Notes under the pieces: model-generated
What the model was told of the DNA's origin: nothing
Seen by the model: the letters and a program-made list of their open reading frames with translations, nothing else
The model's database searches: none
Position numbers and translations under genes: made by a program
Part shown: positions 39,374 to 58,798 of the stretch, in pieces
Layout of the letters: each line of letters opens with the position of its first letter
Position numbering within the stretch: position 1 is the first letter of the stretch
Source of the DNA: Desulfatibacillum sp.
GTDB lineage: Bacteria; Desulfobacterota; Desulfobacteria; Desulfobacterales; SpSt-501
Assembly: GCA_020725555.1 (NCBI GenBank)
Contig: DYEU01000005.1
Coordinates: forward strand, 1,756-65,755
Direction: 5' to 3'
DNA: 64,000 bases

Positions 39374-39437
39374 AGCCCTCGCGGATGAGCCCGAACCGCC
39401 GGGACGGGGGAGGCCGCTTGGGCGACAAGGAAGACCC

Positions 39438-40388: not shown

Positions 40389-40421
40389 AGGGGTGAATTC
40401 CATCGCATCGAGGGGGAGACC

Positions 40422-41989: not shown

Positions 41990-42723
41990 TCGCCCGGGCC
42001 GTCGAACGGCTGCGGGGGGCGAGACGCGCGGTCGCCCTCACCGGGGCCGGCATCTCGATCGCCAGCGGCATCCCCCCCTTCCGCGGCAAGGGGGGCCTGT
42101 GGGAAAGCTACGACCCGATGGAGATCGCGAGCATCGAGGCCCTGCTCGCCGACCCCGCCCGGGTCTGGAAGGTGCTCGTCAAGGACCTCAAGGCGGTCAT
42201 CGAGCGCGCGCGGCCGAACGCCGGGCACCTGGGGCTGGCCCGGCTCGAGGCGCTCGGCATCCTCGCAACCGTCATCACCCAGAACATCGACGGCCTCCAC
42301 CAGAAGGCCGGCAACACGGACGTGATCGAGTTCCACGGCACCTTCGCCTGGCAGCGGTGCATGGGCTGCGGGGCGCGGATCGAGACGCACCGCGTGGACG
42401 ACTCCGTGCTGCCCCCGCGCTGCGCCTGCGGCGGCGTCCTCCGGCCGGACGCCGTCTTCTTCGGCGAGATGATCCCGATCGAGGCCCTCGTCCGCGCGCG
42501 CGAGGCGGCCGAGCGCTGCGACGTCATGCTCGTGGTCGGCACCTCGGCCGTGGTCCAGCCTGCGGCGAGCGTGCCCGTGATCGCCCGGCAACGCGGCGCG
42601 GCGGTGATCGAGATCAACCCGGAGCCGACCCCGCTCACCGGGGTCGTGAGCGAGCTTCGGCTCCCCGCCGCGGCCGACGAGGTCCTGCCCCTGCTCCTTG
42701 CGGAGCTGGAGAGCCGACGGTGA
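41977..42723 (+). CDS. cobB: NAD-dependent protein deacylase (sirtuin)
   Basis: LTGAGIS..SGIPPFRG, TQNIDGLHQKAG, FHG, CMGC...CACGG, VGTSAVVQPAA. Confidence 0.93.
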   Translation: MQELIARAVERLRGARRAVALTGAGISIASGIPPFRGKGGLWESYDPMEIASIEALLADPARVWKVLVKDLKAVIERARPNAGHLGLARLEALGILATVITQNIDGLHQKAGNTDVIEFHGTFAWQRCMGCGARIETHRVDDSVLPPRCACGGVLRPDAVFFGEMIPIEALVRAREAAERCDVMLVVGTSAVVQPAASVPVIARQRGAAVIEINPEPTPLTGVVSELRLPAAADEVLPLLLAELESRR

Positions 42724-44261
42724 GCGTCTCCTCCTGGGTCCTGCCCCTGACGCTCACCCCGCCCAGCCTGCGCGACAACACGGCGGACGCCGACCGCCTG
42801 GCCGCCGCGCTGCGCCGCCGGACGGGCGGCGCCCCCGTCGCGCTCCCGCTCGAGCTCCTGCGCGAGCTCCCCGATGCCTTGCGCGCGGCCGACTGGCGCG
42901 TGCGCTGCGCCCTCTTCGGGGACGGCGAGGGCTGGGTCGCCACCGGGGTCTTCCCCGGCGAGGCGGGGGCCTCGCCGCTCGGCGCCGCCGTGGATTTGGG
43001 GACGACCCGCGTCGCGCTGCGGCTGCTCGAGCTCGCCTCCGGCCGCGTGCTCGCCGAGTCCGGCTTCGACAACCCCCAGGCGGCGGTTGGGCCCGACGTC
43101 CTCACCCGCATCCACCACGCGGCCACCCCGGCCGGCTTGGAAGAGCTCGCGGTCGCCGTCCGGCGGGCGCTTCACCGCGAGCTGAGCGCGCTTCTCGCCG
43201 CCCACGGCCGGGAGAGCCGTGAGCTCACCCACCTCGCGGTCGCCGGCAACACGGCCATGACCCACCTCTTCCTCGGCCTCGAGCCCGGCCGGATGATCCG
43301 CGAGCCCTACATCCCCGTGGTGAACCGGCCGGGGCTGGTCGCCGCGCGCGACGTGGGGCTTTCGTTCGCCCCCGCGGCGCGCGTGTTCGTCTTCCCCAAC
43401 ATCGGCAGCTACTTCGGCGGCGACCTGATCGCCGGCATCCTGTATGCCGGGTTGCACCGCGCCTCCGAGCCGGCGATCCTCATCGACGTGGGAACCAACG
43501 CCGAGGTCGTGCTCGGCACCCGCGACTGGATGATCGGCTGCGCGGGCGCGGCCGGTCCGGCCCTCGAGGGCGGCATGAGCCGCGTCGGCATGACCGCCGC
43601 CCCGGGTGCGATCGACCGCGTCGCGCTCGAGCCGGCGACGGGACGCCTGTCGTTTCACACGATCGGCGGTCTGCCGCCCCGGGGCTTCTGCGGCTCGGGG
43701 ATGATCGACCTCGCCGCCTGCCTCTTCCGCGCCGGGATGATCGATGCCCGCGGCCGGTTCGTCCCCGCGGCCTGCGGCGGCCGCTTGACGACGGACGGCG
43801 CGCGCCTGGTCCTCGTCCCGGCCGCCGCCTCGGCGACCGGCGAAGACCTCAGCCTCGAGCAGGCCGAGCTCGACAGCCTCCTGCGCTCCAAGGCCGCCAT
43901 GTACACGATCCTCGAAACCCTCTGCCTGAGCGTCGGGCTGCGCCTCGAGGACATCGGCACCTTCTACGTCGCCGGGAGCTTCGGCTGCCTGATCGACCCC
44001 CGCTCGGCCGCCACGATCGGCATGCTGCCCGACCTGCCGCCCGAGCGTTTCGTCCCGCTGGGCAACAGCTCGCTCGAGGGCGCAACCCTCCTGCTCGCGC
44101 AACCGGGGTGCCTCGAAGAGATCCCGCGCATCCGCGACCGCATCACCTACCTCGAGTTGAACGTGAACGCCGATTTCATGAGCCGCTTCAGCGCGGCGAA
44201 GTTTCTCCCGCACACCGACGCCGCGCGCTTTCCCAACCGCCCCCGTGGAGGGACCCCGTGA
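42720..44261 (+). CDS. ASKHA ATPase, RACo/DUF4445-like reductive activator of corrinoid proteins, without N-terminal 2Fe-2S
   Basis: VDLGTT, NPQ..GPDVLTRI, GNTAMTHLFLG, DVGTNAE, AAGPALEG, GFCGSG, AGSFG, GNSSLEGA; GTG start overlapping cobB stop. Confidence 0.87.
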   Translation: MSVSSWVLPLTLTPPSLRDNTADADRLAAALRRRTGGAPVALPLELLRELPDALRAADWRVRCALFGDGEGWVATGVFPGEAGASPLGAAVDLGTTRVALRLLELASGRVLAESGFDNPQAAVGPDVLTRIHHAATPAGLEELAVAVRRALHRELSALLAAHGRESRELTHLAVAGNTAMTHLFLGLEPGRMIREPYIPVVNRPGLVAARDVGLSFAPAARVFVFPNIGSYFGGDLIAGILYAGLHRASEPAILIDVGTNAEVVLGTRDWMIGCAGAAGPALEGGMSRVGMTAAPGAIDRVALEPATGRLSFHTIGGLPPRGFCGSGMIDLAACLFRAGMIDARGRFVPAACGGRLTTDGARLVLVPAAASATGEDLSLEQAELDSLLRSKAAMYTILETLCLSVGLRLEDIGTFYVAGSFGCLIDPRSAATIGMLPDLPPERFVPLGNSSLEGATLLLAQPGCLEEIPRIRDRITYLELNVNADFMSRFSAAKFLPHTDAARFPNRPRGGTP

Positions 44262-45445
44262 ACCGGCCGATCTACCTCGACTACAACGGCACCACCCCCC
44301 ACCACCCCGAAGTCATCGCCGCGATGCGGCCTTTTCTCGAGGAAGAGTTCGGCAACCCCTCGAGCGGCCATCTCTACGCCGTCCGGCCCCGCCAGGCCGT
44401 CGCCCGCGCGCGCCGGCAGCTCGCCGACCTCCTCGGCTGCACCCCCGCCGAGGTCGTTTTCACGAGCGGCGGGACCGAGGCGAACAACTGGGCCATCCTC
44501 GGGAGCGCCCTCGGCCTCGCCGAGCGCGGCCGGCACATCGTGACGAGTTGCGTCGAGCACCCCGCCGTGCTCAACGTCTGCCGCTTCCTCGAGGAGCGCC
44601 ACGGCTTCGCGGTGACCCGGGTCGCCGTGGACGGCCACGGCCGGGTCGACCCCGCGGCCGTGGCCGCGGCCCTGCGGCCGGACACCGTGCTCGTGAGCAT
44701 CATGCACGCCAACAACGAGGTCGGCACGATCCAGCCGATCGCCGCCATCGCCCGCCTGGCCCGCGAGCGCGGCGTGCGCGTGCACACCGACGCCGCCCAG
44801 TCGGTGGGGAAGATCCCCGTGCTCGTCGAGGATCTGGGCGTCGATCTGCTCTCCGTCGCCGGCCACAAGCTCTACGCCCCCAAGGGGGTGGGCGCGCTCT
44901 ACGTGCGGCGCGGGATCGCCCTCGGGCCCTTGCTCCACGGCGCCGGCCAGGAGGGGGGGCTGCGCGCCGGAACCGAAAACGTGCTCGAGATCGTGGGCCT
45001 CGGCCAGGCCTGTGAGATCGCCCGGCGCGACCTCGCCGAGACCGGGGCCCGCCTGCGCGTCCTGCGCGACCGGCTCGAAGCCGCCCTCGCCGCGGCCGTC
45101 CCGGAGATGCGGGTGAACGGCCATCCCGAGGAACGGCTGCCCAACACGCTCAACGTCTCCTTCCGCGGCCTCGCCGCCCACCGCCTCCTCGAGGCGATCG
45201 GCCTCGAGGTGGCGGCCTCGGCCGGGGCCGCCTGCCACGCCGACCGCACCGAGATCTCGCACGTGCTCGCGGCCATGGGGGTTCCCGAGGCGTGGGCGGC
45301 GGGAACCCTCCGGCTCACCGTCGGCCGCATGACCACGGCCGCGGAGGTCGATGCCGCCGCGGCCGTGATCGCCCGCGAGGTCGCCGCCCTGCGGGATGGC
45401 GCATCCCGCCGCCCCGAGGGAGCCCCCGGCCGCCCGGCGTCTTGA
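44258..45445 (+). CDS. Group I cysteine desulfurase (IscS/NifS family, possibly selenocysteine lyase-like)
   Basis: IYLDYNGTTP, FGNPSS, FTSGGTEANN, HANNEVG, HTDAAQ, GHKLYAPKG, SAGAACH. Confidence 0.9.
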   Translation: MNRPIYLDYNGTTPHHPEVIAAMRPFLEEEFGNPSSGHLYAVRPRQAVARARRQLADLLGCTPAEVVFTSGGTEANNWAILGSALGLAERGRHIVTSCVEHPAVLNVCRFLEERHGFAVTRVAVDGHGRVDPAAVAAALRPDTVLVSIMHANNEVGTIQPIAAIARLARERGVRVHTDAAQSVGKIPVLVEDLGVDLLSVAGHKLYAPKGVGALYVRRGIALGPLLHGAGQEGGLRAGTENVLEIVGLGQACEIARRDLAETGARLRVLRDRLEAALAAAVPEMRVNGHPEERLPNTLNVSFRGLAAHRLLEAIGLEVAASAGAACHADRTEISHVLAAMGVPEAWAAGTLRLTVGRMTTAAEVDAAAAVIAREVAALRDGASRRPEGAPGRPAS

Positions 45446-45574
45446 AAATTTCCACCGGATCGTTACTTTCTTTCCTTCGCTTCGACCGGGGCGACTTCCG
45501 CCGCCGAACCGGCCGGGGCCGTTTTCGCTTCCGGAATTTCCGATGACACCGCTCTTCCCCCAGGAGGCCGCGAC

Positions 45575-46753
45575 ATGGAATGCGCTTGGGGTGCAGAGCC
45601 GCCGCTCGATCCGCTAGCGGCACCGCTCAAGGCCTGCGGCCGCGCCGCCGCCGAACTCGTTAAGCGGGCCGACCGCCTGGCACGATCCTGCGGCGTGCCG
45701 GCTGGGGACGCGGCCCGCCGCGCCGCGGCCCGCATTCTCGAACACGCGGGCGACCCGGTCGCGGCCGCGGCGGCCCTTCTCGGCGCGGCCCGCGGGCGAA
45801 GCGAGGCGCCGGCGAGCCCCGAGGCCCTGCGGCGGGAATTCGGCCCGCTCCTCGCCGGCCTGGCCGAGGCCGACCCCGGGGGGTTCACGCCGCCCTCCGA
45901 CGGGGAAGGCGACCGCCGGGCGCGCCTCGAGGCCGTGCTTTCCGCCTTCGCCGAGCGGCCGCGCCTTGCGCTGCTCCGGCTCGCCTATCGCCTGATCGAG
46001 CTCGAGGACGCCTGCGACGGCCGGCGCGGGGACGGCGCCGCGCTCGCCCGCGAGACGCTCGCCTTCTGGGTCCCGATCGCCGACCGCCTGAGCCTCGGCG
46101 GCCTGCGCCGCAGGCTCGAGGACCTCTGCTTCCGGCTGATCGACCCCGCGGGCTACGAGGCGCTGCGCCGGCGGATCGCCCCGATCCAGGCCGGCGACGA
46201 CCGCTACCTCGCCGCGCTGAGGGGCCACGTGCAGGAGCTGCTCGCGGGAAACGGCATCCGCGCCGAGATCCAGACGCGCACGAAGAGCCTCCACGCCATC
46301 CGGCGCAAGATGCTCCGCACCGGCAAGAAACCCGAGGAGATCATGGACCGGCTCGGCGTCCGGGTCATCGTCGAGACCGTGCCCGAGTGCTACGCGGTCC
46401 TCGGCCTGATCCACACCGCCTTCACGCCGGTCCCGGGGACCTTCGACGACTACATCGGCCGGCCCAAGGAGAACGGCTACCAGTCGCTGCACACGGTGGT
46501 GATCCCCTTGCGCGAGCTCTCCCACAAGCCGGTCGAGTTCCAGATCCGCACCCGGCGCATGCACCTCGTCGCCGAGTTGGGCTCCGCCGCCCACTGGCTC
46601 TACAAGAACGAGGTGCCGCCCGCGGAGGAGGATCCCGCGGCGCGGCGTCGCCTGGGGATGCTGCTCGAGGAGGGGCGGCTCGCCGAGAGCGTGGAGGCCT
46701 TCCTCGAGCGGCTCGGAGGCGGCGCGCCGCAACCCGGGGAGGTCGCACGATGA
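45575..46753 (+). CDS. RelA/SpoT-family (p)ppGpp synthetase with degenerate HD domain and no TGS/ACT
   Basis: RTKSLHAI..KM, MDRLGVRVIV, FDDYIGRPKENGYQSLHT, EFQIRT..MH..AELGSAAHWLYK; HD motif absent; GGAGG RBS. Confidence 0.85.
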   Translation: MECAWGAEPPLDPLAAPLKACGRAAAELVKRADRLARSCGVPAGDAARRAAARILEHAGDPVAAAAALLGAARGRSEAPASPEALRREFGPLLAGLAEADPGGFTPPSDGEGDRRARLEAVLSAFAERPRLALLRLAYRLIELEDACDGRRGDGAALARETLAFWVPIADRLSLGGLRRRLEDLCFRLIDPAGYEALRRRIAPIQAGDDRYLAALRGHVQELLAGNGIRAEIQTRTKSLHAIRRKMLRTGKKPEEIMDRLGVRVIVETVPECYAVLGLIHTAFTPVPGTFDDYIGRPKENGYQSLHTVVIPLRELSHKPVEFQIRTRRMHLVAELGSAAHWLYKNEVPPAEEDPAARRRLGMLLEEGRLAESVEAFLERLGGGAPQPGEVAR

Positions 46754-49059
46754 ACGCCATGACCGGCGGGGCCCCCGCCTTCCAGATCGCCCTGGTCGGC
46801 ACCTACCTGCCGCGGCAGTGCGGGATCGCCACCTTCACGAGCGACCTGCTGCGGGCGATCGCGCAGGAAATGCCGGAGGGGCGTTGCTGGGCGGTGGCCA
46901 TGAACGACGTCGCCGGCGGGCTTCCCTACCCGCCGGAGGTGCGCTTCGAGATCAACCAGCGGGTGCTCGCGGAGTACCGGCTCGCGGCCGACTACCTGAA
47001 CGTGAAGCGCGTGGACGCGGTCTGCCTGCAGCACGAGTACGGCATCTTCGGCGGCGAGCACGGCCATTACGTGCTCGACCTCTTGAACGCCCTGCGCATG
47101 CCGCTCGTCACCACGCTGCACACCGTGCTCCACCGGCCGGACCCGGGCCAGCAGGCGGTCCTCCGGCGCATCGCCCGCATCTCGGACCGGCTGGTCGTCA
47201 TGAGTCGCCGGAGCGCCGAGGTCCTAGAACGCGTCTACGACGTGCCCCGCCGCAAGATCGCCTTCATCCCCCACGGCATCCCCGACGTGCCCTTCGTGGA
47301 CCCCAACTTCTACAAGGACCAGTACGGGGTGGAGGGCCGCAAGGTCATCCTCACCTTCGGGCTGCTCTCCCCGGGGAAGGGGATCGAGGTCATGATCGAG
47401 GCCCTCCCGGCCGTGGTCCGCCGGCACCCCGACGTGGTCTACCTGGTGCTGGGGGCGACCCACCCCCACGTGCGCCGCGAGCAGGGCGAGTCCTACCGCC
47501 TCGGCCTGCAGCGCCGCGCGCGCGATCTCGGCGTGGGCGACCACGTCGTCTTCCACAACCGCTTCGTCGACCTCGAGGAGCTCTGCCAGGTCCTCGGCGC
47601 GGCCGACATCTACGTCACCCCCTACCTCAACCCGGAGCAATCGACCTCCGGCACCCTCGCCTACGCGCTGGGGTGCGGCAAGGCGGTGGTCTCGACCCCC
47701 TACGGCTACGCCGAGGAAATGCTCGCCGACGGCCGCGGCCGGCTGGTCCCCTTCCGCGACCCCGAGGCCCTCGCCGCGGCGATCCTCGATCTCCTCGACA
47801 ACGAACGGGAGCGCCACGCCATGCGCAAGCTCGCCTACACCTCCTGCCGCGGCATGGTCTGGCGGGAGGTCGCCCGGAGCTACCTCGAGCTCTTCGCCGA
47901 GGTGCGCGCGGAGCGCGAGCGCTTCCCGCGGCCGGTCTTCCGCGCGCGCACGGCGGAGGAGTTCCCGCGCGAGGCGCCCCAGCCCCGGATCGACCACATC
48001 CTGCGGCTGACCGACGACGTGGGCATCCTCCAGCACGCCCGCTACGGCATCCCCGACCGCCGCCACGGCTACTGCACGGACGACAACGCCCGCGCCCTGA
48101 TCGCCGTGCTCAAGGCGCGGGAGATGATCGCCGACGGCGCCCCCCTCGACGACCTCGCCGTGCGCTACCTGAGCTTCCTGCAGCACGCCTTCCACCCCGA
48201 AACGGGGCGCTTCCGCAACTTCATGGGCTACGACCGCAGCTGGGCGGAGGAGGTCGGCTCCGAGGAAAGCCACGGCCGGGCCGTCTGGGGCCTGGGCGAG
48301 GCGATCGCGCTCGCGCCCGCCGAGGACTTCGCCGCCGCCGCGCGCACGCTCTTCGAGGCCGCCCTGCCGGCGCTCGAGGGCTTCACCTCGCCGCGGGCGT
48401 GGGCCTACGCGCTGGCGGGCCTGGAGAGCTACCTGCGGCTCTTCCCCGGGGCGAGCGAGGTGCGGCGCCTGCGGGAGGCGCTCGCCCTCAAGCTCTTCGA
48501 GCTCCACCGCGCCGCCTCGACCCCCGACTGGCCCTGGATCGAGCCGCTCTTGGCCTACGCGAACGGCCGCATCCCGCAGGCGCTCATCCTCTGCGGCCGC
48601 CGCCTCGGCCATGCGGAGATGCTCGCCGCCGGGCTGGAGAGCCTGCGCTGGCTCTTCGCCGTCCAGACCGACCCCCGCGGTCACCTCGTGCCGGTCGGCA
48701 ACAACGGCTGGTACCCCCGGGGCGGGGAGCGCGCCCGCTTCGACCAGCAGCCGATCGAGGCGGCCGAGCTGATCGAGGCCGCGCGGGAGGCCTGGGAGGC
48801 CACCCGCGCCCCCGAGTGGCTGCAGGCCGCGCAGCGCTGCCTGGAATGGTTCCTGGGCGGAAACGACCTCAACGTCCCCCTCTACGACCACCGCAGCGGC
48901 GGCTGCTACGACGGCCTGACCCCGACGGGCCCCAACCGCAACCAGGGTGCGGAGTCGACGCTCGTCTGCTTCCTTTCGCTGCTCAACCTGAACCAGCTCC
49001 GCGGTCGCGAAATCGCCTCCGAGGAGGAGGCGGCGCGGGGGGAGACGGTCCATGGCTAA
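46750..49059 (+). CDS. GT4 glycosyltransferase fused to a C-terminal helical, probably (alpha/alpha)6 glycosidase-like domain
   Basis: YLPRQCGIATF, QHEYGIFGG, TFGLLSPGKG, STSGTL; then GILQHA..GYCTDDNARAL, FRNFM, FDQQPIE, NQGAEST. Confidence 0.87.
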   Translation: MNAMTGGAPAFQIALVGTYLPRQCGIATFTSDLLRAIAQEMPEGRCWAVAMNDVAGGLPYPPEVRFEINQRVLAEYRLAADYLNVKRVDAVCLQHEYGIFGGEHGHYVLDLLNALRMPLVTTLHTVLHRPDPGQQAVLRRIARISDRLVVMSRRSAEVLERVYDVPRRKIAFIPHGIPDVPFVDPNFYKDQYGVEGRKVILTFGLLSPGKGIEVMIEALPAVVRRHPDVVYLVLGATHPHVRREQGESYRLGLQRRARDLGVGDHVVFHNRFVDLEELCQVLGAADIYVTPYLNPEQSTSGTLAYALGCGKAVVSTPYGYAEEMLADGRGRLVPFRDPEALAAAILDLLDNERERHAMRKLAYTSCRGMVWREVARSYLELFAEVRAERERFPRPVFRARTAEEFPREAPQPRIDHILRLTDDVGILQHARYGIPDRRHGYCTDDNARALIAVLKAREMIADGAPLDDLAVRYLSFLQHAFHPETGRFRNFMGYDRSWAEEVGSEESHGRAVWGLGEAIALAPAEDFAAAARTLFEAALPALEGFTSPRAWAYALAGLESYLRLFPGASEVRRLREALALKLFELHRAASTPDWPWIEPLLAYANGRIPQALILCGRRLGHAEMLAAGLESLRWLFAVQTDPRGHLVPVGNNGWYPRGGERARFDQQPIEAAELIEAAREAWEATRAPEWLQAAQRCLEWFLGGNDLNVPLYDHRSGGCYDGLTPTGPNRNQGAESTLVCFLSLLNLNQLRGREIASEEEAARGETVHG

Positions 49060-50278
49060 CCGGCCGATCGTGCTCGTGAGCTCCTACCCGCCGCGGCTGT
49101 GCGGGATCGCCACCTTCTGCGAGGAGGCGCGCGAGTTCATCCAGAAGGCGAACCCCGAGCGCGAGGTGCTGGTGATCAGCCACACCGACGGCCGCGGCGA
49201 GGGGGTCTATCCTATGATCGACCTCGCACGGCGCGACTGGTGGGTGCCCGTGGCGCGGCGCATCGAAAAGCTCGACCCCTACGCCGTGCACATCGAGCAC
49301 GAGTACGGGCTCTACGAGTACCGCGACCCCCGGGGCGTGGGCGACGGCAACGAGGGCTTCCTCGACCTCCTCGAGGCGATCGGCACCTTCCCCGTCGTGG
49401 TCGAGCCGCACACGGTGCACGGCCGCCTGAGCGATTTCGAGGCCGACTTCATCTTCCGCCTCTGCCAGCGGAGCCACGTGGTCCTCTTCAAGTGCCATTA
49501 CCAGAAGTGGCGGCTCGAATGGACCTTCCAGGGGCGAAACTGGGCCGTGCCGCGCAACATCATGGTCGTGCCCCACGGCGCGCGGCCCGACAAGCGCTGG
49601 GGCATCCACGAGATCCCGCGCATCCGCCGCGAGCTGGGGCTCGACCGGGCGGGGCTCGCCGACCACGTCGTGGGGATGATCGGCTGGATCCAGAGCAACA
49701 AGCGCTGGGACATCCTGCTCTCCCTGTGGGAGGAGCTTCACGAGGAGATCCTCCGGCGCACGGGGCAGCCGTGGGATCTGCTCGCCGCCGGGGCGATGCG
49801 CGACCCCCACCACCGCCGCGACTTCGAGGAATGGAAATCGGAGGTGCTCACGCTCGAGCGCAAGGGGATCGCGCACTACCGGGAGTTCATCCCGCGTGGC
49901 GACACCTACTACAAGATGATGGCCGTCTGCGACTTCATCGTCCTGCCGACGATCGACGAGACCCAGTCGGGGACGCTCGCGCGCATCATCGCCCTCAACA
50001 AGCCCTACGTCACGACCGCCCCCATGGAGGGGCTGACCGCGCAGACCCTCGAGAGCGAGGGCGGTCTGCTCTTCACGACCAAGGCCATGCTGCGCCAGAA
50101 GGTGCTCAAGCTCGCCTGCGACGAGCGGCTGCGGCTGGAGCTGGGCGAGAACCTGCGGCGCTACCTCGACGAGGTGGTCTCCTGGGAGCGGATCGCGCGG
50201 CAGTACAACGAAGCCTACCGGCTCGCGCGGAGGGCCGCCCGCACCGGCGAGCCGGTCGCGCTGGAGCCGGAATTCTGA
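49052..50278 (+). CDS. GT4-like glycosyltransferase
   Basis: YPPRLCGIATF, EHEYGL, PHG, TQSGTLAR, SWERIARQY. Confidence 0.82.
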   Translation: MANRPIVLVSSYPPRLCGIATFCEEAREFIQKANPEREVLVISHTDGRGEGVYPMIDLARRDWWVPVARRIEKLDPYAVHIEHEYGLYEYRDPRGVGDGNEGFLDLLEAIGTFPVVVEPHTVHGRLSDFEADFIFRLCQRSHVVLFKCHYQKWRLEWTFQGRNWAVPRNIMVVPHGARPDKRWGIHEIPRIRRELGLDRAGLADHVVGMIGWIQSNKRWDILLSLWEELHEEILRRTGQPWDLLAAGAMRDPHHRRDFEEWKSEVLTLERKGIAHYREFIPRGDTYYKMMAVCDFIVLPTIDETQSGTLARIIALNKPYVTTAPMEGLTAQTLESEGGLLFTTKAMLRQKVLKLACDERLRLELGENLRRYLDEVVSWERIARQYNEAYRLARRAARTGEPVALEPEF

Positions 50279-50305
50279 CGACGCCGGCAAGGAGTCCTGA
50301 TCCGT

Positions 50306-51271
50306 ATGAGCGACGCCCGTTTCCGCGAACTCTTCCGGCGGCACCCCGCCAACCCCATCCTGCAGACCCGGGATCTCCCCTATCCGGCGAACTCGGTCTT
50401 CAACGCCGGGGCGACGCGCTGCGGCGAGGAGACGCTCCTGCTCCTGCGCGTCGAGGACCGCCGCGGGATGTCCCACCTCACCGTCGCGCGCAGCCGCAAC
50501 GGGGTCGACGGCTGGGCGATCGACCCGCATCCGACCCTGCTCCCCGACCCCGAGCACCACCCCGAGGAGCTCTGGGGCATCGAAGACCCGCGCCTCACGC
50601 GCATCGAGGAGCTCGACCTCTGGGCCGTGCTCTACACCTCCTACTCGCGCGGCGGCCCACTCGTGTCGCTCGCCACCACGCGCGACTTTCGCACCTTCGA
50701 GCGCAAGGGCGTCGTCATGCCCCCCGAAGACAAGGACGCGGCCCTCTTCCCGGTCCGCTTCCGCGGCCGCTGGGCCATGCTGCACCGGCCCGTCACCGCC
50801 TTCGCCGGGGTCGGCGCCCACATCTGGATCTCCTTCAGCCCGGACATGAAGCACTGGGGCGACCACCAGATCCTGATCCCGGCGCGGCAGGGCGGCTGGT
50901 GGGATGCGAACAAGATCGGCCTCTCCCCCCCGCCCCTGGCCACCGAGCGCGGCTGGCTGATCCTCTACCACGGCGTGCGGCAGACGGCCGGCGGGTGCAT
51001 CTACCGCCTGGGGCTTGCGCTGCTGGACCTCGAGGAGCCGACCCGCGTGACGGCCCGCGCCGACGAGTGGGTCTTCGCCCCCGAGGAGCCCTACGAGGTC
51101 ACGGGCGACGTGGACAAGGTCGTCTTTCCCTGCGGGTGGGTGGTCGAGGGCGACGCGGTGCGGCTCTACTACGGCGGGGCCGACAAGTGCATCGCGCTCG
51201 CCACCGCGAGCGTGCGCGAGCTTCTCGACTGGCTCGAGGCCCACAAGCACTGGGACCGCCGCGTCTGCTGA
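50306..51271 (+). CDS. GH130 mannoside phosphorylase/glycosidase
   Basis: NPIL, VFNAGA, GIEDPR, KDAALFP, HRP, YHGV, VVFPCG, YYGGAD. Confidence 0.9.
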   Translation: MSDARFRELFRRHPANPILQTRDLPYPANSVFNAGATRCGEETLLLLRVEDRRGMSHLTVARSRNGVDGWAIDPHPTLLPDPEHHPEELWGIEDPRLTRIEELDLWAVLYTSYSRGGPLVSLATTRDFRTFERKGVVMPPEDKDAALFPVRFRGRWAMLHRPVTAFAGVGAHIWISFSPDMKHWGDHQILIPARQGGWWDANKIGLSPPPLATERGWLILYHGVRQTAGGCIYRLGLALLDLEEPTRVTARADEWVFAPEEPYEVTGDVDKVVFPCGWVVEGDAVRLYYGGADKCIALATASVRELLDWLEAHKHWDRRVC

Positions 51272-51281
51272 GGAGGCGCCC

Positions 51282-52337
51282 ATGCGTGTCGCGATGCTCT
51301 CGCCCATCGCCTGGCGCACCCCGCCGCGCCACTACGGCCCGTGGGAGACCGTGGTCTCGCTGCTGACCGAGGGGCTGATCGACCGCGGGATCGAGGTGAC
51401 CCTCTTTGCGACCGCGGACTCGATCACCCGCGCCCGGCTCGCCGCGGTCTGCCCCCGCGGCTACGAGGAGGACCCCGCCCTCATCCCCAAGGTCTGGGAG
51501 TGCCTGCACATCGCCTCGCTCTTCGAGCGCGGCGACGAGTTCGACCTGATCCACAACCACTTCGACTTCCTGCCCCTCACCTACTCGGCGATGACGCGCA
51601 CGCCGGTCGTGACCACGATCCACGGCGTTTCCTCGCCCGGCATCCTCCCCGTCTACCGCGCCTACAACGGCCGGGTCTTCTACGTGGCGATCAGCGCGGC
51701 CGACCGCCGGCCGGAACTCGACTACCTGGCCGTCATCCACCACGGGATCGACCTTGCCGGCTTCACCTTCCGGCCCGAAGCCGGGGAGTATCTTCTCTTC
51801 TTCGGCCGCATCCACCCCGAGAAGGGGACCCGCGAGTGCATCGCGGTGGCCCGCCGCACGGGCCTGCCCCTCGTCATCGCGGGCATCGTCCAGGATCCGG
51901 CCTACTTCGAATCCGCGGTGCGGCCGCACCTGGACGGCGAGCGGATCCGCTACGTGGGCAGCGTCGGCCCCGCGCGGCGCGATGCGCTCCTCGGCGGGGC
52001 GCGCGCGCTGCTGCACCCGATCGCCTTCGAGGAGCCCTTCGGCCTCTCCGTGGTCGAGGCCATGGCCTGCGGCACCCCGGTCATCGCCTTCCGCCGCGGC
52101 AGCATGCCCGAGATCGTCGCCGACGGGGAAACGGGGTTTCTCGTGGAGGACCTGGAGGGCATGGTCGAGGCCGTCTTCGCCCTCCCCCGGATCGAGCGCG
52201 CCGCCTGCCGCCGCCGTGTCGAGGCGCACTTCACGGCCGGCCGCATGGTTGACGACTACCTGAGGGTCTACGGGGAGGTCCTCCGCCGCCGGGTCCGCCG
52301 CGGCGAAGACACCGCAAGAGGAAACGGAGGTGCGTGA
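51282..52337 (+). CDS. GT4 glycosyltransferase
   Basis: PPRHYGPWE, GRIHPEKG, EPFGLSVVEAMACGTPV (E-X7-E). Confidence 0.9.
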   Translation: MRVAMLSPIAWRTPPRHYGPWETVVSLLTEGLIDRGIEVTLFATADSITRARLAAVCPRGYEEDPALIPKVWECLHIASLFERGDEFDLIHNHFDFLPLTYSAMTRTPVVTTIHGVSSPGILPVYRAYNGRVFYVAISAADRRPELDYLAVIHHGIDLAGFTFRPEAGEYLLFFGRIHPEKGTRECIAVARRTGLPLVIAGIVQDPAYFESAVRPHLDGERIRYVGSVGPARRDALLGGARALLHPIAFEEPFGLSVVEAMACGTPVIAFRRGSMPEIVADGETGFLVEDLEGMVEAVFALPRIERAACRRRVEAHFTAGRMVDDYLRVYGEVLRRRVRRGEDTARGNGGA

Positions 52338-53281
52338 TGGGCGCATCGGCCGGGCCGCTCGTGCGGCGCCATCCCAAGAACCCCATTCTCACCCGCGACG
52401 ACGTCCCCTATCCCGTCGTCACCGTGCACAACGCGGGGGCGGTGCGCTTCCGCGACCGCTACCTTCTCGTCTTCCGCTCCCATCTCCGCAACGGCCGCTC
52501 CATCCTGGGGCTCGCCGAAAGCGGGGACGGCTTCACCTTCCGCGTGCGGCCGACGCCCTTCCTCACCCCGGCGGCGGAGGGGCCGTTTGCCGCCTACGAG
52601 GAATACGGCGTCGAGGACGCCCGCATCTGCGCCCTCGAGGGCGCCTTCTGGATCACCTACAGCGCCTACTCGCGCCACGGGGTGCGCATCGGGCTCGCCC
52701 GCACCGAGGACTTCGAGCGCGTCGAGCGGATCGCCCTCATCACCCAGGCCGACTGCCGCAACGTGGTTCTCTTCCCGGAGCGCTTCGGCGGCCGCTACGC
52801 CCGCCTCGACCGCCCGCACTCGCAGATCGCGCCCTGGTCGATCTGGATCTCCTGGTCCCCGGACCTCGTCCACTGGGGCGACGCACAGATCCTCCTGCGG
52901 CCGGCCCCCTACCATTGGGACGAGATGAAGGTGGGCCCCGGCGCGACCCCCGTGCGCACCCCCCGCGGCTGGCTGAACCTCTTCCACGGGGTCTTCCAGA
53001 CCATGGACGGCGCCATTTACCGCCTGGGCGCGGCCCTCCACGCCCTCGAGGACCCCGGCCGCCTCCTGGGGGTGGCCGACGAATGGATCCTCCAGCCCGA
53101 GGACCCCTGGGAGGTCGCGGGCTACGTCCACAACGTCGTCTTCACCTGCGGGGCGATCCCCGAGGAAGACGGGACGATCAAGATCTACTGGGGCGGGGCG
53201 GACACGGTGCTCTGCGCGGGCGAGGCCCGGATCGACGACCTGGTCGACCTGTGCCTGGAGCGGCCGCGGCCGCCGCTCTGA
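52334..53281 (+). CDS. GH130 mannoside phosphorylase/glycosidase (second subtype)
   Basis: NPIL, HNAGA, GVEDAR, RNVVLFP, DRP, FHGV, NVVFTCG, YWGGAD. Confidence 0.9.
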   Translation: MMGASAGPLVRRHPKNPILTRDDVPYPVVTVHNAGAVRFRDRYLLVFRSHLRNGRSILGLAESGDGFTFRVRPTPFLTPAAEGPFAAYEEYGVEDARICALEGAFWITYSAYSRHGVRIGLARTEDFERVERIALITQADCRNVVLFPERFGGRYARLDRPHSQIAPWSIWISWSPDLVHWGDAQILLRPAPYHWDEMKVGPGATPVRTPRGWLNLFHGVFQTMDGAIYRLGAALHALEDPGRLLGVADEWILQPEDPWEVAGYVHNVVFTCGAIPEEDGTIKIYWGGADTVLCAGEARIDDLVDLCLERPRPPL

Positions 53282-53361
53282 GGCGGCCGCGGAGGACTGT
53301 CCGGCCCCCCCCGGCCGCGATCGGGCGGGGGCCGTCGAGGGGGGGGACCCGGGAAGAGGCC

Positions 53362-54411
53362 ATGCCGTTTCTCCGACCGATCGCCGCGTCGCTCGCTTTT
53401 CTTTCCGCCGCGGGGTGCCTTGCGCCCCCTGCGCCGTTTGCACCCGAGACCCCCGCCTGGCGCGTGGCCCCCCTGTTCGCCGCGCCGCCCGTCGACGGCC
53501 GGGGGCGCTTCCGGGAAATCCTCTGCCTCCTCGCGGCCGGCCTTCCGGAGGGGGAGGCCGGGGAGGCGTGCGCGGATCTCCTCTGGCGCCTCGGCGACGA
53601 GGCCCCCGCCGCCTCGACCCCGCGGCCCCTGCCCCCCCACGACCCGCGGCTGCGCATCCTCATCGTCCCCGGCGCCTTCACCGAGTGTTTCCCCGGCTTC
53701 GGGCGGCCCTTCGAGGACGCCGCGCCGTCGCTCGCCGCCGCAGGCTATCGGATCGATTGGATCCCCGTCGCCGGACGCTCGGGAAGCGAGGAAAACGCCG
53801 CCCGCATCGCCGCCTTCCTGCGCGAGTTTCCGCCGCAGGAGGGCGAGCGCCTCGTGCTGCTCGGCCACTCCAAGGGGGCGGTCGACATCCTCGATTTTCT
53901 CGCCCGGTACCCGGCGGAGGCCCGCCGCGTCCGCGCCGCGGTCGCGGTCGCCGGCCCGGTCGCGGGGTCCCGGCTCGCCGAGCGCTGGGAGCGCCTCGAG
54001 GATCTCCTGCTTTCCCGGTTTCCGCTGGCGCACTGCCCGGCAGGCGACGGCAGGGTGCTCGCCGACCTCGGCCGGGAGCACCGGCTCCGCCGGCTGGCGC
54101 AGGATCCTCCCGCCCCCGGGGTCCTCCTCGTTTCGCTCGGCGCCTTCACCCGGCGCCAGGCGATCCACCCGCTTCTTCTCGCCACCTACGATCTGCTTGC
54201 GTCCTGGGACCCGCGAAACGACGGGCTCGTCACCCACGCCGAGCAGGTCATCCCCGGCTCACTCCTGCTCGGCTGGGCGAACCTCGACCACTGGGACATC
54301 GCGCTGCCGGTGCGCGAGCGGCTGAACGTGGGCGGCGCCGGAAGCCGCAAGGCCGAACGCCGGCTCCTCTTCGAGGCCCTGCTGCGGATGCTCGCGGAAC
54401 AGCTGCCATGA
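53362..54411 (+). CDS. Alpha/beta hydrolase lipoprotein
   Basis: SAAGC lipobox, GHSKG nucleophile motif, NDGLV, DHW. Confidence 0.75.
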   Translation: MPFLRPIAASLAFLSAAGCLAPPAPFAPETPAWRVAPLFAAPPVDGRGRFREILCLLAAGLPEGEAGEACADLLWRLGDEAPAASTPRPLPPHDPRLRILIVPGAFTECFPGFGRPFEDAAPSLAAAGYRIDWIPVAGRSGSEENAARIAAFLREFPPQEGERLVLLGHSKGAVDILDFLARYPAEARRVRAAVAVAGPVAGSRLAERWERLEDLLLSRFPLAHCPAGDGRVLADLGREHRLRRLAQDPPAPGVLLVSLGAFTRRQAIHPLLLATYDLLASWDPRNDGLVTHAEQVIPGSLLLGWANLDHWDIALPVRERLNVGGAGSRKAERRLLFEALLRMLAEQLP

Positions 54412-54526
54412 CCTGAGGTGAGGGGGCTCGCGCCATCCGCGCCCGGCCATGAGGCCCTGGGAAATCTCGCGCGGCCTGCGGCCGGCGCGTCGGGGTAAGC
54501 CGGGTGCCGGGGAGCGATCGGCCCGC

Positions 54527-54934
54527 TCAGCGGCCGGCGGTCGCGAGGAAGCAGCTCACGTAGACGCGGGTTGCGTCTTCCTCCTCGTCGCTGCAGGCGA
54601 AGACGGCGTCGCCGACGCGGATGCAGGTCGAGGCAAAGAGGCCGCCTTCGGTGCCGTCGCCGTAGAGGGAGGCGGCGGCGAGCCAGTAGGTCGCGCCGGG
54701 GGAAAGGCCGGTGACGACAACGGCGGGGTGCCCGGGGTCGTCGAGCGCGGCGAGCGGCAACTCGTCGATTTTCTCCCAGTCGGCCCCGCCCGTGCGGCGA
54801 TAGACGGCGTAGCCGGTGACGGCCGGGTCCGGGTCGGCCGGCCAGGAAAAGAGAACATCGATCGCCGCGGCCGCCGGAGGCAACACGAGGGCGACGAGAG
54901 CGGCGGCGAGCAAGCTGCGGCGGCTTCGTCTCAT
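54527..54934 (-). CDS. Small secreted fibronectin type III-like protein with CFLATA C-terminus
   Basis: Signal peptide; W...VTGYAVYR...VTGLSPGATYW; ends SCFLATAGR; ATGA overlap with the upstream gene. Confidence 0.7.
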   Translation of the reverse strand: MRRSRRSLLAAALVALVLPPAAAAIDVLFSWPADPDPAVTGYAVYRRTGGADWEKIDELPLAALDDPGHPAVVVTGLSPGATYWLAAASLYGDGTEGGLFASTCIRVGDAVFACSDEEEDATRVYVSCFLATAGR

Positions 54935-56709
54935 GCGTTGCTCAGCAGGAAAAGAAGGACGAAGCGCGCGTCCAGGTTCTCGGGGGCGACGCGGCCGTAC
55001 TCCGCCTCGAGCTCGGCGAAGAGCTCCTCGAAGATCTCCCCCCAGGTGCCGCGGACCTCCTCCTCGTCGATCCCCGCCGCCGCGGCGAGAAAGGAGACGA
55101 AATCGGATCGCCGCGCCGCGGGGATCCGCCGCGGGGCCTCCGCCGGGGCGTGGGCGGCCGGTGCGAAGAGCCCCTCGAAAAAGGGCCGGAAGGCCGAAAG
55201 CGGAAGCGGCGCGAGCACCTCGCCCATCCGGCCCAGGCGGTCGGCGGCCCAGGCGGTGAGCAGGAGATTCTTCCAGGTGAGGAAGCGGTATCCGCCGGCG
55301 GGCCCCAGCCGTGGGGAAAGCCGTGCCAGCAGCCGGTCGACCCGGCGGATGCGCTCGAGCACGGTCTCGGTCGCCGCGATGTCCTCGCGGGAGTGGAACT
55401 CGCGGTAGAGGAGCCCCGTGCGGTAGTTGTCGTAGAACAGGGGCTTCTTGAGCAGGATCCCGCCCAGCACCCCCATCCACCGTTCCCCCCAGAAGCTGAG
55501 CTTGAGCCCCTCGCGGGCGAACCAGCTGCCGGCAAGCCAGGCCTCGGTCCGCCACTTGAGCCGCAAGGCCTCCCCGAAGCCGAGGCGGAAGAGGTCGACC
55601 AGCGGGTGGCGCAGCAGCAGGGCCGCCGCGCGTGCGGGGTCGGGGGCCGCGGTCTCCCCCTCCTTCCCCGCAAGCGTCTCCAGGGCGATCCCGAGGTAGC
55701 CGCAGGCCTTGGCGACCACCTCGCGCAGGTCGTCGCGGCTGCGGACCTCCCGGCGATCGGCCACGATGAGCCGGTTGCAGAGGTTGGCGAACTCCCATTG
55801 CAGGTACAGCCGCTGCTCGCCGGGCTCGATGCGCGCGAGCGCCCGGTGGAAGGGTGCGGCCTCCGGGAGCTCGCGCCAGGGGAAGGCCGGGACCGGCAAA
55901 AGCCCGCCCCCCTCCTCGACCTCGCCGCGGGGGACGCGTTTCGGCCGGCTGCGGCCGAGCTGCCCGGGGGTGACCGGTTGATAGACGCCGATCGCCTCGT
56001 CGAAGGGCACGAACCCCTTTTCCGCCAGGCGCACGTTCCGCCAGCGGTACTCCTCCTCCTCGGCCTCCGCCGGGATCACGTGGGCCGCCTCGAGCAGGAC
56101 GCTCTGGTAGACGAGATGGTCCTCCGCGGCGATTTTCTCGAGGAGGCGGTGGAGAAAGCGGCGGCGGCGATCCTCGTCGAGGTCCGAGCCCCCCGGGATC
56201 CGCGGCAGGTCGAGGATGCGCACGTAGTAGACCTGGTCGAGGGTGAAGAAGCCCTCGCCGAATTCCGAGGGGTCCTGGTCGTGTTCGCGGATGCGCACCT
56301 CGACGTTGTGAAAGAGATAGAGCTCGCCGAAGGCGAGCCGCTCCTTCAGAAACCAGCGCACGAAGCGCCCCGGGTCGGCCTCGAGGAGGAGATCCATCCA
56401 GCGCGTGGCGCGGTGCACCTCGAGGCGCTCCCCGGCCCAGGCCTCGACGTCGAGCACGTGGTCCCACTGGCGGTCGGAGGCGAGCTTGAGCAGCGGCAGC
56501 GCATCCTCGGGACCGATGTCCCGGACGAGGAGGTGGAAGTCGCTCTCGGGGATCGCGTGCACGAGGGCCGGCGCCTGGGGCTCGGCGAGAATGCGCTCGA
56601 GGGCCTCCTCGGCGGGAAGCGCGAGGATCTCGGCCCGCTTGCGCGCGAGTTCCCGCAGCCGCTCGCGCACGGGGGCGGCCGGGGGCGTGTGCGGCGGGTG
56701 CTCAGCCAT
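54931..56709 (-). CDS. Conserved deltaproteobacterial protein (DUF6178-like)
   Basis: 592-aa ORF with typical codon usage, coupled to both neighbours; IGPEDALPLL..ASDRQWDHVLDVEAW, EEEEYRWRNVRLAEKGF, LFRLGF. Confidence 0.7.
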   Translation of the reverse strand: MAEHPPHTPPAAPVRERLRELARKRAEILALPAEEALERILAEPQAPALVHAIPESDFHLLVRDIGPEDALPLLKLASDRQWDHVLDVEAWAGERLEVHRATRWMDLLLEADPGRFVRWFLKERLAFGELYLFHNVEVRIREHDQDPSEFGEGFFTLDQVYYVRILDLPRIPGGSDLDEDRRRRFLHRLLEKIAAEDHLVYQSVLLEAAHVIPAEAEEEEYRWRNVRLAEKGFVPFDEAIGVYQPVTPGQLGRSRPKRVPRGEVEEGGGLLPVPAFPWRELPEAAPFHRALARIEPGEQRLYLQWEFANLCNRLIVADRREVRSRDDLREVVAKACGYLGIALETLAGKEGETAAPDPARAAALLLRHPLVDLFRLGFGEALRLKWRTEAWLAGSWFAREGLKLSFWGERWMGVLGGILLKKPLFYDNYRTGLLYREFHSREDIAATETVLERIRRVDRLLARLSPRLGPAGGYRFLTWKNLLLTAWAADRLGRMGEVLAPLPLSAFRPFFEGLFAPAAHAPAEAPRRIPAARRSDFVSFLAAAAGIDEEEVRGTWGEIFEELFAELEAEYGRVAPENLDARFVLLFLLSNA

Positions 56710-58641: not shown

Positions 58642-58715
58642 GGCGAAGGCCTCCTGAACGGGGATCGGGGTTCTTGTACGCGCTCCGGCGGGGGGTTGCA
58701 AGCGGCGCGCCCCGC

Positions 58716-58743
58716 TTTACAAGGTCCCTCCCCCGTGTATAAT
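58716..58743 (+). promoter_or_regulatory. Sigma70 promoter of recN
   Basis: TTTACA-N16-TATAAT. Confidence 0.6.
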
Positions 58744-58798
58744 TGCGGCCGCGATCCGGACGCCTTCCGGAGACCGCCGTGCGCCGAGGCCGCCCGCG

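Follow-up and report, generated by a model that had tools for sequence, protein, structure and literature searches.

Why should a gene for a putative alarmone synthetase stand at the head of a run of sugar-handling genes, and is the association more than an accident of one genome? The question is raised by a stretch of 64,000 nucleotides from Desulfatibacillum sp. (assembly GCA_020725555.1, contig DYEU01000005.1, positions 1,756 to 65,755 of the forward strand), called the window here at its full length, which lies on contig C29 of a 3.59 Mb genome in 35 contigs with ~71% G+C. Between positions 45575 and 53281, a short RelA/SpoT homologue (RSH) is followed on the + strand by a fusion protein with a glycosyltransferase family 4 (GT4)-like domain, a GT4-like paralogue (GT4b), a glycoside hydrolase family 130 enzyme (GH130a), a canonical GT4 enzyme (GT4c) and a second GH130 enzyme (GH130b). 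An earlier account made from the letters alone, the sequence-only reading, had taken these genes for a cytoplasmic cycle that builds and remobilises a mannose-containing compound and is tied to (p)ppGpp signalling. The explanation favoured here, to which we give a probability of roughly 0.55, is that of one operon with two co-produced outputs: a hydrolase-dead (p)ppGpp synthetase and a cytoplasmic mannoside module.

The anatomy of the locus is largely as that reading had described it. All six open reading frames (ORFs) lie on the same strand where it had placed them, in the same order and with the expected Pfam and NCBIfam domains, and their frames are backed by codon-position GC. The ATGA overlap between the RSH and fusion genes at 46750-46753 can be read directly in the sequence, and the junctions beyond it are as tight as had been claimed (overlapping or under 30 bp), with an 8-nucleotide (nt) overlap, gaps of 27 and 10 nt and a 4-nt overlap; a purine-rich, Shine-Dalgarno-like stretch precedes each of the six genes. 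A Kyte-Doolittle scan found no 19-residue window with a mean above 1.45 in any of the six proteins, and so no signal peptide, as had been noted, and no membrane helix. The unit likewise holds no flippase, polymerase or exporter, as stated earlier, and no priming phosphotransferase. Six genes do form the block, but the same-strand run does not end with them, continuing past 53281 into a hydrolase gene (53362-54411).

The principal evidence that the RSH belongs with the sugar genes comes from other genomes. The short RSH was searched for in three draws, comprising 41 genomes of relatives, 401 of the order and 401 of the phylum (G000 being in each), and orthologues at 44-84% identity were found in 15 distinct genomes, all remaining RSH matches being long Rel. 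Adjacency in related genomes had been set beforehand as the check on which the linkage would stand or fall, and it held in 12 of the 15 RSH-bearing genomes (G000, G010, G020, G017, G004, G341, G096, G135, G281, G413, G604 and G747), where the RSH gene immediately precedes that of the GT4 fusion, both on one strand; in most of these loci the RSH stop codon overlaps the fusion start or sits within a few nucleotides of it. The twelve are not independent, with four close to the window and sharing whole-region synteny, and with G135 and G281 nearly identical over the cassette, so that ~8 distinct linked lineages remain, drawn from several GTDB families and two orders. Upstream of the unit the genes vary: a cysteine-desulfurase-like gene in the window, and LOG, tRNA methyltransferase, type I restriction subunit, HNH or alpha/beta hydrolase genes elsewhere. 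Pairwise identities of the RSH and the GT4 fusion rise and fall together (r = 0.94 over 55 pairs of 11 loci, pairs that are not themselves independent), which fits inheritance as one unit in which the RSH is always the faster-evolving partner.

The cassette also seems to move as a unit. G135 and G281, which belong to different GTDB families, share 96% identity in the RSH and 98% in the GT4 fusion, and 96-98% at the protein level over a cassette made up of a helix-turn-helix (HTH) gene, the RSH and the fusion; flanking it are genes for a DDE transposase (L011 3124-4707), an HNH endonuclease and a subunit of a type I restriction system. Such near-identity across families suggests a recent horizontal transfer of the whole cassette between the two lineages. 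Apparent mobility and the confinement of the linkage to one phylum would also be expected if the RSH had landed beside the sugar genes once and simply stayed there without a functional tie, or if it were the toxin of a toxin-antitoxin pair, for which one may point to the XRE-type HTH gene, weakly similar to antitoxin HTH domains, that precedes the RSH in four linked genomes. We consider this very improbable, as adjacency and tight coupling hold down to ~45% RSH identity in at least eight lineages with different flanks, and the synthetase domain is clearly constrained. The toxin-antitoxin variant was rejected for the window itself, where, as in its close relatives, no HTH gene lies upstream of the RSH, and where the RSH derives from long RSHs and not from the single-domain toxic alarmone synthetases.

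In three of the 15 genomes the RSH is followed by something else. In G008 and G019 the next genes encode a CUT1 sugar-type ABC importer (L008 8416-12265 and L009 8391-12359), with a solute-binding protein fused to a permease (UgpA-, MalE- and MalF-like), a second permease and a UgpC-like ATPase; in G008 the RSH and importer genes share 4 nt, and in G019 the importer is followed by a gene for a universal stress protein. In G308 a Cpn60-family chaperonin gene comes directly after the RSH, then a MoxR AAA ATPase gene (L096 7188-8825). Chaperone genes also occur at one of the linked loci, HSP20 and Cpn60-family genes lying downstream of the sugar block in G281 (L011 14238-16750).

What precedes the RSH bears on whether it heads a transcription unit. 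In the window's clade a promoter-like box lies ~100 nt before the RSH ATG, with equivalents of the form TTGAAA(T/A)TTTxCC ... GTTAT at the same place in G010 and G020. Other lineages carry a different element, a ~32-nt box of the form GTTGACAT-N-TTGTTGATTCTGGA-N-ATTTCGGG with the palindrome-like core GAAATTTC, which ends 5-8 nt before the RSH start in G004, G281, G096, G135 and G413, with weaker copies in G341, G308 and G747, and which is common to families whose RSH proteins share only 58-77% identity. The presence of the box in G308, ahead of the RSH that has a chaperonin gene for its neighbour, indicates that it precedes the RSH whatever comes next. This element is a candidate promoter or operator, and both elements place the putative transcription start before the RSH, which would thus head the unit. 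Just upstream of the box in G096, G135, G281 and G413 lies the XRE-type HTH gene, whose 74-residue products are 89-96% identical to one another and which is, by sequence and position, a candidate regulator of the cassette. A simple sigma-70 scan of 44000-55500 returned no promoter-like site and did not call the box at 45442-45475; a terminator scan of the same interval gave six sites against 3.0 +/- 1.8 expected, none at the operon junctions and one inside GT4c; and when the sequence before the RSH was searched at 13 loci for the sigma-54 and CIRCE consensus, nothing convincing was seen.

What kind of alarmone enzyme is it, then, that heads the unit? The genome encodes two RSH proteins, a 713-residue Rel on contig C27 and the 392-residue short RSH of the window. 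The latter belongs to the synthetase superfamily, with a RelA_SpoT domain (PF04607) that scores 122 bits where 27 is the cut-off, and with the motifs RTKSLHAIRRKM, DRLGVRVIV, TFDDYIGRPKENGYQSLHT and EFQIRT. The corresponding patterns seen in the RelA alignment (RxKxxxSxxxK, DxxxxR, PKxNGYQSxH and ExQIRT), which we take to serve the functions commonly ascribed to them in RSH synthetases, are invariant across 47 family members, and nearly all of the 52 invariant columns of the 47-member alignment fall in the synthetase domain, where mean identity to 43 distant members is 62.5% as against 35.6% in the N-terminal domain. That N-terminal domain, roughly 200 residues long and HD_4-like, sets the protein apart from the single-domain small alarmone synthetases of about 200-250 residues. 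It has lost the hydrolase HD and ED motifs that mark a long bifunctional Rel/SpoT: against the genome's own Rel, SGEPYLLHP falls in a deletion and LLGAARGRSE takes the place of LLHDVLEDT. All six short orthologues aligned with that Rel likewise lack both motifs, and the catalytically dead domain is kept in all 47 aligned members. At the other end the protein stops at residue 392, ~45 residues past the synthetase domain, without TGS, helical, zinc-finger/CC or ACT/RRM domains.

Its best PDB match is E. coli RelA (phmmer, E 8e-47, aligned from residue 119 on); the top matches are N-terminal halves of long RSHs, and RelP and RelQ match only weakly (E 1e-9 to 1e-6). At the RXKD/EXDD position the short RSH reads TFDD, and the genome's own Rel KFKD. 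A database search restricted to 215-686 residues returned 135 RSH-family clusters at E <= 1e-40, most of them of 400-545 residues with generic names and labelled Desulfobacterales, Thermodesulfobacteriota, Syntrophales, Syntrophorhabdaceae or CSSED10-310. Most family members are 465-504 residues long and end in a weak TGS/ThiS-like beta-grasp domain, which the window's 392-residue clade has lost. By its sequence, then, the short RSH is a derivative of long RSHs composed of a dead hydrolase and a synthetase (with or without the TGS-like domain), and falls outside both the classical long RSHs and the small alarmone synthetases. Its description as a RelA-like synthetase in the sequence-only reading stands for the intact synthetase domain, and has to be extended by the degenerate hydrolase-like domain before it.

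Such an enzyme might do more than be expressed beside the sugar genes. It could be a working part of the pathway, converting the GDP released by GDP-mannose-dependent transfer to ppGpp, using a nucleotide sugar or other non-canonical acceptor, or releasing a product that regulates the GT4 fusion or the GH130 enzymes allosterically on the spot. The stop-start coupling or few-nucleotide spacing in most linked loci would suit this view, as would the TFDD position, since the acidic RelA-like class prefers GDP, and the fusion's GT4 domain, whose best PDB sequence match is the GDP-mannose-dependent PimA; RSH-fold enzymes with non-canonical acceptors do exist. However, the guanine-binding PKxNGYQSLHT motif is invariant and of RelA form, which points to ordinary GDP/GTP acceptors, the same RSH stands beside an importer or a chaperonin in three genomes, and most copies of the sugar module have no RSH at all, so that we hold a direct part in the pathway to be doubtful. 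A complex prediction that paired the RSH (from the 47-sequence alignment) with residues 1-400 of the fusion, its GT4 domain, scored 0.00 against a mark of 0.32, a result that counts neither for nor against an interaction.

An equally doubtful proposal would make the RSH a sensor of carbohydrate status, its N-terminal (and TGS-like) domain binding a sugar, a sugar phosphate or a partner, so that the sugar genes would be its input and not a parallel output. The coupling to a CUT1 sugar-type importer in G008 and G019 would then mean that the shared theme is carbohydrate supply and not this particular module, and retention of a catalytically dead N-terminal domain in 47 of 47 aligned members would have a reason. 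Yet no ligand-binding motif was identified, the window's clade keeps the linkage despite having lost the TGS-like domain, and the next gene in G308 encodes a chaperonin and not a sugar protein. Two outputs produced together from one operon is still the reading that we prefer, and its second half depends on what the remaining five genes encode.

The first of these is the fusion. It is conserved at 43-71% identity over 36 aligned loci and occurs in Desulfobacterota, Planctomycetota, Verrucomicrobiota, Acidobacteriota, Chloroflexota, Ignavibacteria, Cyanobacteriota and archaeal bins. Its transferase domain was modelled by AlphaFold2 (AF2) at a pLDDT of 87 and matched by Foldseek to MshA, BshA and the PimA already mentioned (target TM 0.75-0.80). 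A GT-B fold with a Glycos_transf_1 domain is indicated by Pfam matches for the fusion and GT4c, and by a weak match for GT4b. The EX7E motif is present in GT4c (EPFGLSVVE) and has no canonical counterpart in the fusion (QSTSGTLAY) or GT4b (ETQSGTLAR), for which reason these two are classed as GT4-like and not as typical GT4 enzymes. GT4b is ~25% identical to the fusion's GT4 domain, both carry an N-terminal PRxCGIATF motif, and together they look like a distinct GT-B subfamily.

Beyond residue ~390 the fusion gave no Pfam match, and 37 members of its C-terminal domain gave only scattered weak matches to six-hairpin families. Structure prediction was clearer, with the C-terminal 365 residues forming an (alpha/alpha)6 barrel (AF2 pLDDT 93.9, pTM 0.92). 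The part called merely helical in the sequence-only reading is indeed helical, and the model and its fold matches allow the more specific assignment. Those matches (VIA-align) are to 7tem at Z 39.4, cellobiose 2-epimerase/AGE at Z 28-30, GH76 at Z 27-28 and MmpH (7qsj) at Z 25.6; most of these neighbours act on mannose-type sugars, a shared fold being no demonstration of function. By profile search the barrel matches 7tem only (E 2.8e-16), and no chain of the AGE superfamily matched it by sequence at E up to 1. Its only invariant histidines lie within its first 25 residues; AGE enzymes carry catalytic histidines in a barrel of this fold. A nearly invariant Asp-Asp pair (CTDDNARAL, residues 444-445) is common to the barrel and YPO2471, the protein of 7tem; the catalytic residues of GH76 alpha-mannanases are a consecutive Asp-Asp pair. 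In the ESM Atlas the barrel matches only unnamed 'glycosyltransferase' clusters of ~370 residues, a lead to the existence of stand-alone barrels.

The two GH130 proteins are ~44% identical to each other. GH130a matches TM1225, RaMP2, UhgbMP, Lin0857 and Teth514_1788 in the PDB at E 1e-56 to 1e-46, and GH130 structures of hydrolase type match far more weakly (E 1e-8 to 1e-22). Both proteins keep the catalytic Asp, in EDPR (GH130a) and EDAR (GH130b), aligned with YDPR in TM1225 and UhgbMP, EDAR in Lin0857 and EDPR in Teth514_1788. At the phosphate site GH130a has the pattern KD ... HRP ... YHGV, its K-D ... H-R-P being that of the beta-1,2 enzymes Lin0857 and Teth514_1788, and GH130b has RN ... 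DRP ... FHGV, its R-N ... R-P being that of TM1225 and UhgbMP. With the catalytic Asp and the basic phosphate-site residues in their established roles, and on the strength of the Pfam domain (PF04041, the five-bladed propeller of GH130), both copies are predicted to be of phosphorylase type. TM1225 and UhgbMP are given as beta-1,4-specific in the relevant passage of PMC12814180. A ManC-like gene (362 bits) on contig C20 of the same genome makes a supply of GDP-mannose plausible.

How general is this set of genes? More than 623 relatives of the fusion were found in the genome collection, and module counts were taken from the 79 loci kept. A GH130 gene is present at 58 of the 79, usually as the next gene, and in distant phyla encodes a longer version of roughly 485 residues, extended at the N-terminus. 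GT4b comes after the fusion at 13 of the 79 loci; GT4c occurs in 14, with a GH130b-type gene next to it in 11 of these. The recurrence of GH130 beside the fusion across phyla defines a pan-phylum core of the fusion and one GH130 with variable neighbours. It also speaks against another assignment for the glycosyl genes, namely that they make a glycan of the envelope or one that is secreted (a glycolipid, a glycoprotein or an exopolysaccharide), the RSH being no more than co-regulated as the envelope is remodelled. GT4 enzymes are common in envelope glycan synthesis, among the weak NCBIfam matches of the glycosyl genes are EpsE and transferases associated with PEP-CTERM, the block is followed by the lipoprotein hydrolase gene, and there is an MFS gene close by on the opposite strand. 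But the unit has no flippase, polymerase, priming phosphotransferase or exporter gene, its six proteins have no membrane segments, neither the lipoprotein gene nor the MFS gene stays with the block beyond its closest relatives, the core across phyla is a bare two-gene pair, and GH130 phosphorylases require cytoplasmic phosphate and mannose-1-phosphate. An envelope product is accordingly improbable in our judgement, more so than either direct role for the RSH considered above.

The same survey supplies several of the observations that count against the reading of one operon with two outputs, and these should be taken together. An RSH gene is found at only two of the 71 fusion loci with at least 1.5 kb of upstream sequence, both in genomes already counted, and within the genus the fusion occurs in 6 of 27 genomes, one of which (G013) has the fusion and GH130a only, without a short RSH. 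With the RSH absent from nearly all copies, the module evidently does not need it, and three RSH orthologues coupled to other genes mean that the RSH is not strictly tied to the module either. The RSH diverges faster than the sugar genes (49% identity to G004, as against 69-82%), and loss of the TGS-like domain in the window's clade could reflect relaxed constraint. We infer co-transcription of the six genes from their spacing only. The departure of the fusion and GT4b from the EX7E motif makes their transferase activity itself uncertain. Finally, the best PDB matches of the GH130 proteins score roughly 150-195 bits to beta-1,4 and beta-1,2 enzymes alike, and their NCBIfam equivalog scores of 238 and 218 bits lie far below the cut-off of 550, so that no linkage specificity can be assigned to them. 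The proposed tie between alarmone synthetase and sugar block is thus supported by conserved adjacency and by the box before the RSH, and limited by the many modules that lack an RSH and by the three RSH genes coupled elsewhere. The relation is asymmetric: the RSH is largely dedicated to the module, and the module is independent of the RSH.

On the favoured explanation, the locus would work as a promoter-headed, translationally coupled and self-contained operon. Without its C-terminal regulatory region the RSH cannot sense the ribosome; it would be constitutively competent, and its output should track, and would be set by, its expression level, much as for small alarmone synthetases. Removal of the alarmone would fall to the bifunctional long Rel, whose gene is on another contig. 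Among the sugar enzymes, retaining GT4 proteins would add alpha-linked sugars from nucleotide sugars, and the GH130 proteins would attach or release beta-mannose in a reversible exchange with phosphate and mannose-1-phosphate, the energy of the bond being kept as mannose-1-phosphate; the barrel domain might trim, prime or isomerise. The product would be a soluble mannose-containing oligosaccharide or glycoside, built and remobilised as a reserve or protectant, and one signal, probably of stress and perhaps of nutrient status, would switch on both the rise in (p)ppGpp and the filling or draining of the sugar pool. The cytoplasmic build-and-remobilise cycle of the sequence-only reading fits the data in that signal peptides are absent, phosphorylase residues are present in GH130 and a ManC-like gene is at hand, and it is retained here as a proposal. 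The sequences themselves show the gene content, the intact catalytic motifs, the lack of export signals and the joint inheritance of RSH and module; we infer that the RSH produces (p)ppGpp, as we do the identity of the sugars, the way in which flux runs and the signal that induces the unit. A stress flavour is lent by genes for HSP20, Cpn60 and a universal stress protein that lie close to the RSH in other genomes, and by the hot-spring labels of most sequencing runs that contain this DNA.

How far does this arrangement resemble systems already known? Amongst alarmone synthetases, E. coli RelA has the same succession of a degenerate hydrolase and an active-looking synthetase, with an acidic residue class at the position of TFDD and the GYQSLHT guanine-site motif; the window's RSH differs in lacking the ribosome- and tRNA-sensing C-terminal half, in being a second copy beside a bifunctional Rel, and in heading a sugar operon. 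With RelP and RelQ it probably shares, to judge from domain content, independence from the ribosome, an output set by transcription and the need for a separate hydrolase, but it keeps a roughly 200-residue hydrolase-like domain and is of long-RSH descent. Two groups described by Atkinson et al. (2011, PMC3153485) come closer: RshD, a long RSH that delta-proteobacteria, Desulfotalea and Syntrophobacter among them, have as a second copy, and RshC, truncated after the TGS domain. Second copy and TGS truncation both match the short RSH family, in a comparison made by description only; however, the passages concerned in PMC3153485 write both groups as [HS], with the hydrolase predicted active, where the short RSH has no hydrolase motifs, and those passages mention no gene context.

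On the sugar side, the nearest parallel is the Teth514_1785-1796 cluster of Thermoanaerobacter sp. X-514, in whose description (the portion of PMC4264767 concerned) two adjacent GH130 phosphorylases stand beside a GT4 alpha-mannosyltransferase around a mannose-1-phosphate hub; the K-D ... H-R phosphate-site pattern is also common to Teth514_1788 and GH130a. That cluster is described there as one of import and salvage, with an ABC importer, GH5 and a guanylyltransferase and without an RSH. The unit in the window, by contrast, has no importer or ManC, has three GT4-type genes and a fused barrel, and its GH130 matches to the cluster reach only ~150-165 bits. Mannogen cycling in Leishmania and the dual-activity GH130 enzymes, as outlined in the pertinent sections of PMC12814180 and PMC10913872, share the idea of a cytoplasmic beta-mannoside reserve that phosphorylase-type enzymes make and degrade, but the Leishmania enzymes are GT108 and not GH130, and nothing here supports a beta-1,2-mannan in the window's organism; in bacteria, the physiological relevance of GH130 transferase activity is called unproven in the same part of PMC12814180. 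The mycobacterial methylmannose polysaccharide system combines a GT4 mannosyltransferase, ManT, with an (alpha/alpha)6 barrel hydrolase, MmpH, and its structures 7qsg and 7qsj are among the fold matches. ManT and MmpH act on an intracellular mannose polymer. The resemblance is one of fold, without relation at the sequence level, and that system has neither GH130 nor RSH. YPO2471 of Yersinia pestis (7tem), which superposes on the barrel with an rmsd of 2.5 A over 336 residues and has the DDxxRA and NxN-GAEST motifs in common with it, is the only homologue with a solved structure, but it is a stand-alone, uncharacterised 'putative exported protein' and gives no pointer to the activity of the barrel. 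A literature search of incomplete coverage, over titles, abstracts and selected passages, found no report linking an RSH to GH130 or GT4 genes and no characterisation of the GT4-barrel fusion.

We read the short RSH, by its architecture and dedicated gene context, as representing a putative new subfamily attached to a widespread and uncharacterised mannoside module. With an RSH subfamily that leads a sugar operon and in that position is passed on by descent, and apparently also horizontally, stringent signalling in anaerobic relatives of sulfate reducers would have a carbohydrate-linked branch, and the linkage gives a first regulatory clue to a GT4-barrel/GH130 module found in hundreds of genomes of bacterial and some archaeal phyla. 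If the module does yield a mannoside that is induced by stress and serves as reserve or protectant, its RSH-linked form, in which a promoter, a candidate regulator and a signalling read-out come together, is a natural starting point. For alarmone synthetases, the established drivers are ribosomes, acyl carrier protein and, under envelope stress, transcription. A bolder and rather unlikely extension is that this subfamily reads carbohydrate flux independently of the ribosome, with GDP released by the module or a nucleotide sugar as substrate, and that (p)ppGpp or a new derivative both reports and controls the mannoside pool; were it true, stringent signalling would gain a new input and the pan-phylum module its first physiological role.

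Table 1. Coordinates of the six-gene unit, the gene that follows it and the putative regulatory elements (window positions unless a locus, L, is named).
Feature	Position	Strand	Basis
Short RelA/SpoT homologue (RSH), 392 residues	45575..46753	+	RelA_SpoT 122 bits; HD_4 34 bits (Pfam), NCBIfam
GT4-like/barrel fusion, 769 residues	46750..49059	+	Glycos_transf_1 79 bits, residues 191-363
GT4-like GT-B domain of fusion, residues 1-395	46750..47934	+	Pfam; AF2 and Foldseek
(alpha/alpha)6 barrel of fusion, residues 405-769, YPO2471-like	47962..49059	+	AF2, fold search, profile search
GT4b, divergent GT4-like paralogue, 408 residues	49052..50278	+	Glyco_trans_1_4 29.6 bits, weak
GH130a, predicted phosphorylase type, 321 residues	50306..51271	+	Pfam 195 bits; PDB matches
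GT4c, canonical retaining GT4, 351 residues	51282..52337	+	Pfam 82 bits; EPFGLSVVE motif
GH130b, predicted phosphorylase type, 315 residues	52334..53281	+	Pfam 162 bits
Lipoprotein-type alpha/beta hydrolase, 349 residues, possible seventh gene	53362..54411	+	Codon-position GC; lipobox, GHSKG
Promoter-like box TTGAAAATTTCC ... TACTTT	45442..45475	+	Sequence reading; 129-nt aminotransferase-RSH gap
~32-nt box, candidate promoter/operator	L092 10785-10816; L093 10858-10889; L094 10851-10882; L095 10653-10684; L010 6933-6964; L097 3350-3381		
XRE-type HTH gene	L093 10925-11149	-	
XRE-type HTH genes	L011 6185-6406; L092 10861-11076; L095 10725-10934		

The possible seventh gene begins 80 nt past GH130b and encodes a 349-residue protein with the lipobox LSAAGC, a GHSKG motif and weak Pfam matches only. 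G020 has a copy of 75% identity and G010 only a remnant, and in G019 a copy of 53% identity lies upstream of the RSH (L008 4789-5793); the gene is a local add-on outside the conserved unit. An ORF at 53415-54416 (+) had been a candidate for the same position and was rejected as an Arg/Pro-rich artefact of the wrong frame. Beyond the hydrolase gene the unit is abutted by a convergent run on the minus strand (54527-57980) that encodes a 135-residue secreted FN3-like protein, a DUF6178 protein (523 bits), an MFS transporter and Ham1. The transporter gene (56730-57980) lies 3.4 kb from the block and is not conserved with it in other lineages. A 1257-residue ORF at 56702-60475 was dismissed as an artefact that covers several real genes.

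Upstream on the + strand, the ParA, HDAC-like, CBS, PrmA, RACo-like and aminotransferase genes (38540-45445) were considered as members of the unit and rejected, their synteny being restricted to the three closest genomes, with none of them upstream at the other linked loci. The last two (41787-45445, +) encode a RACo-like protein with corrinoid reductive-activase domains (294 bits) and a class-V cysteine-desulfurase-like aminotransferase; as listed, their ORFs overlap by ~150 nt, and one true start is probably further in. At least half of the DNA between 44900 and 54500 is present in six sequencing runs from six studies, four of them labelled hot-spring metagenome and one sediment, and the best holder may be the source sample; as a hint on habitat only, these labels suggest a thermal setting for the organism. 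G+C over these loci in the sampled genus ranges from roughly 55 to 71%.

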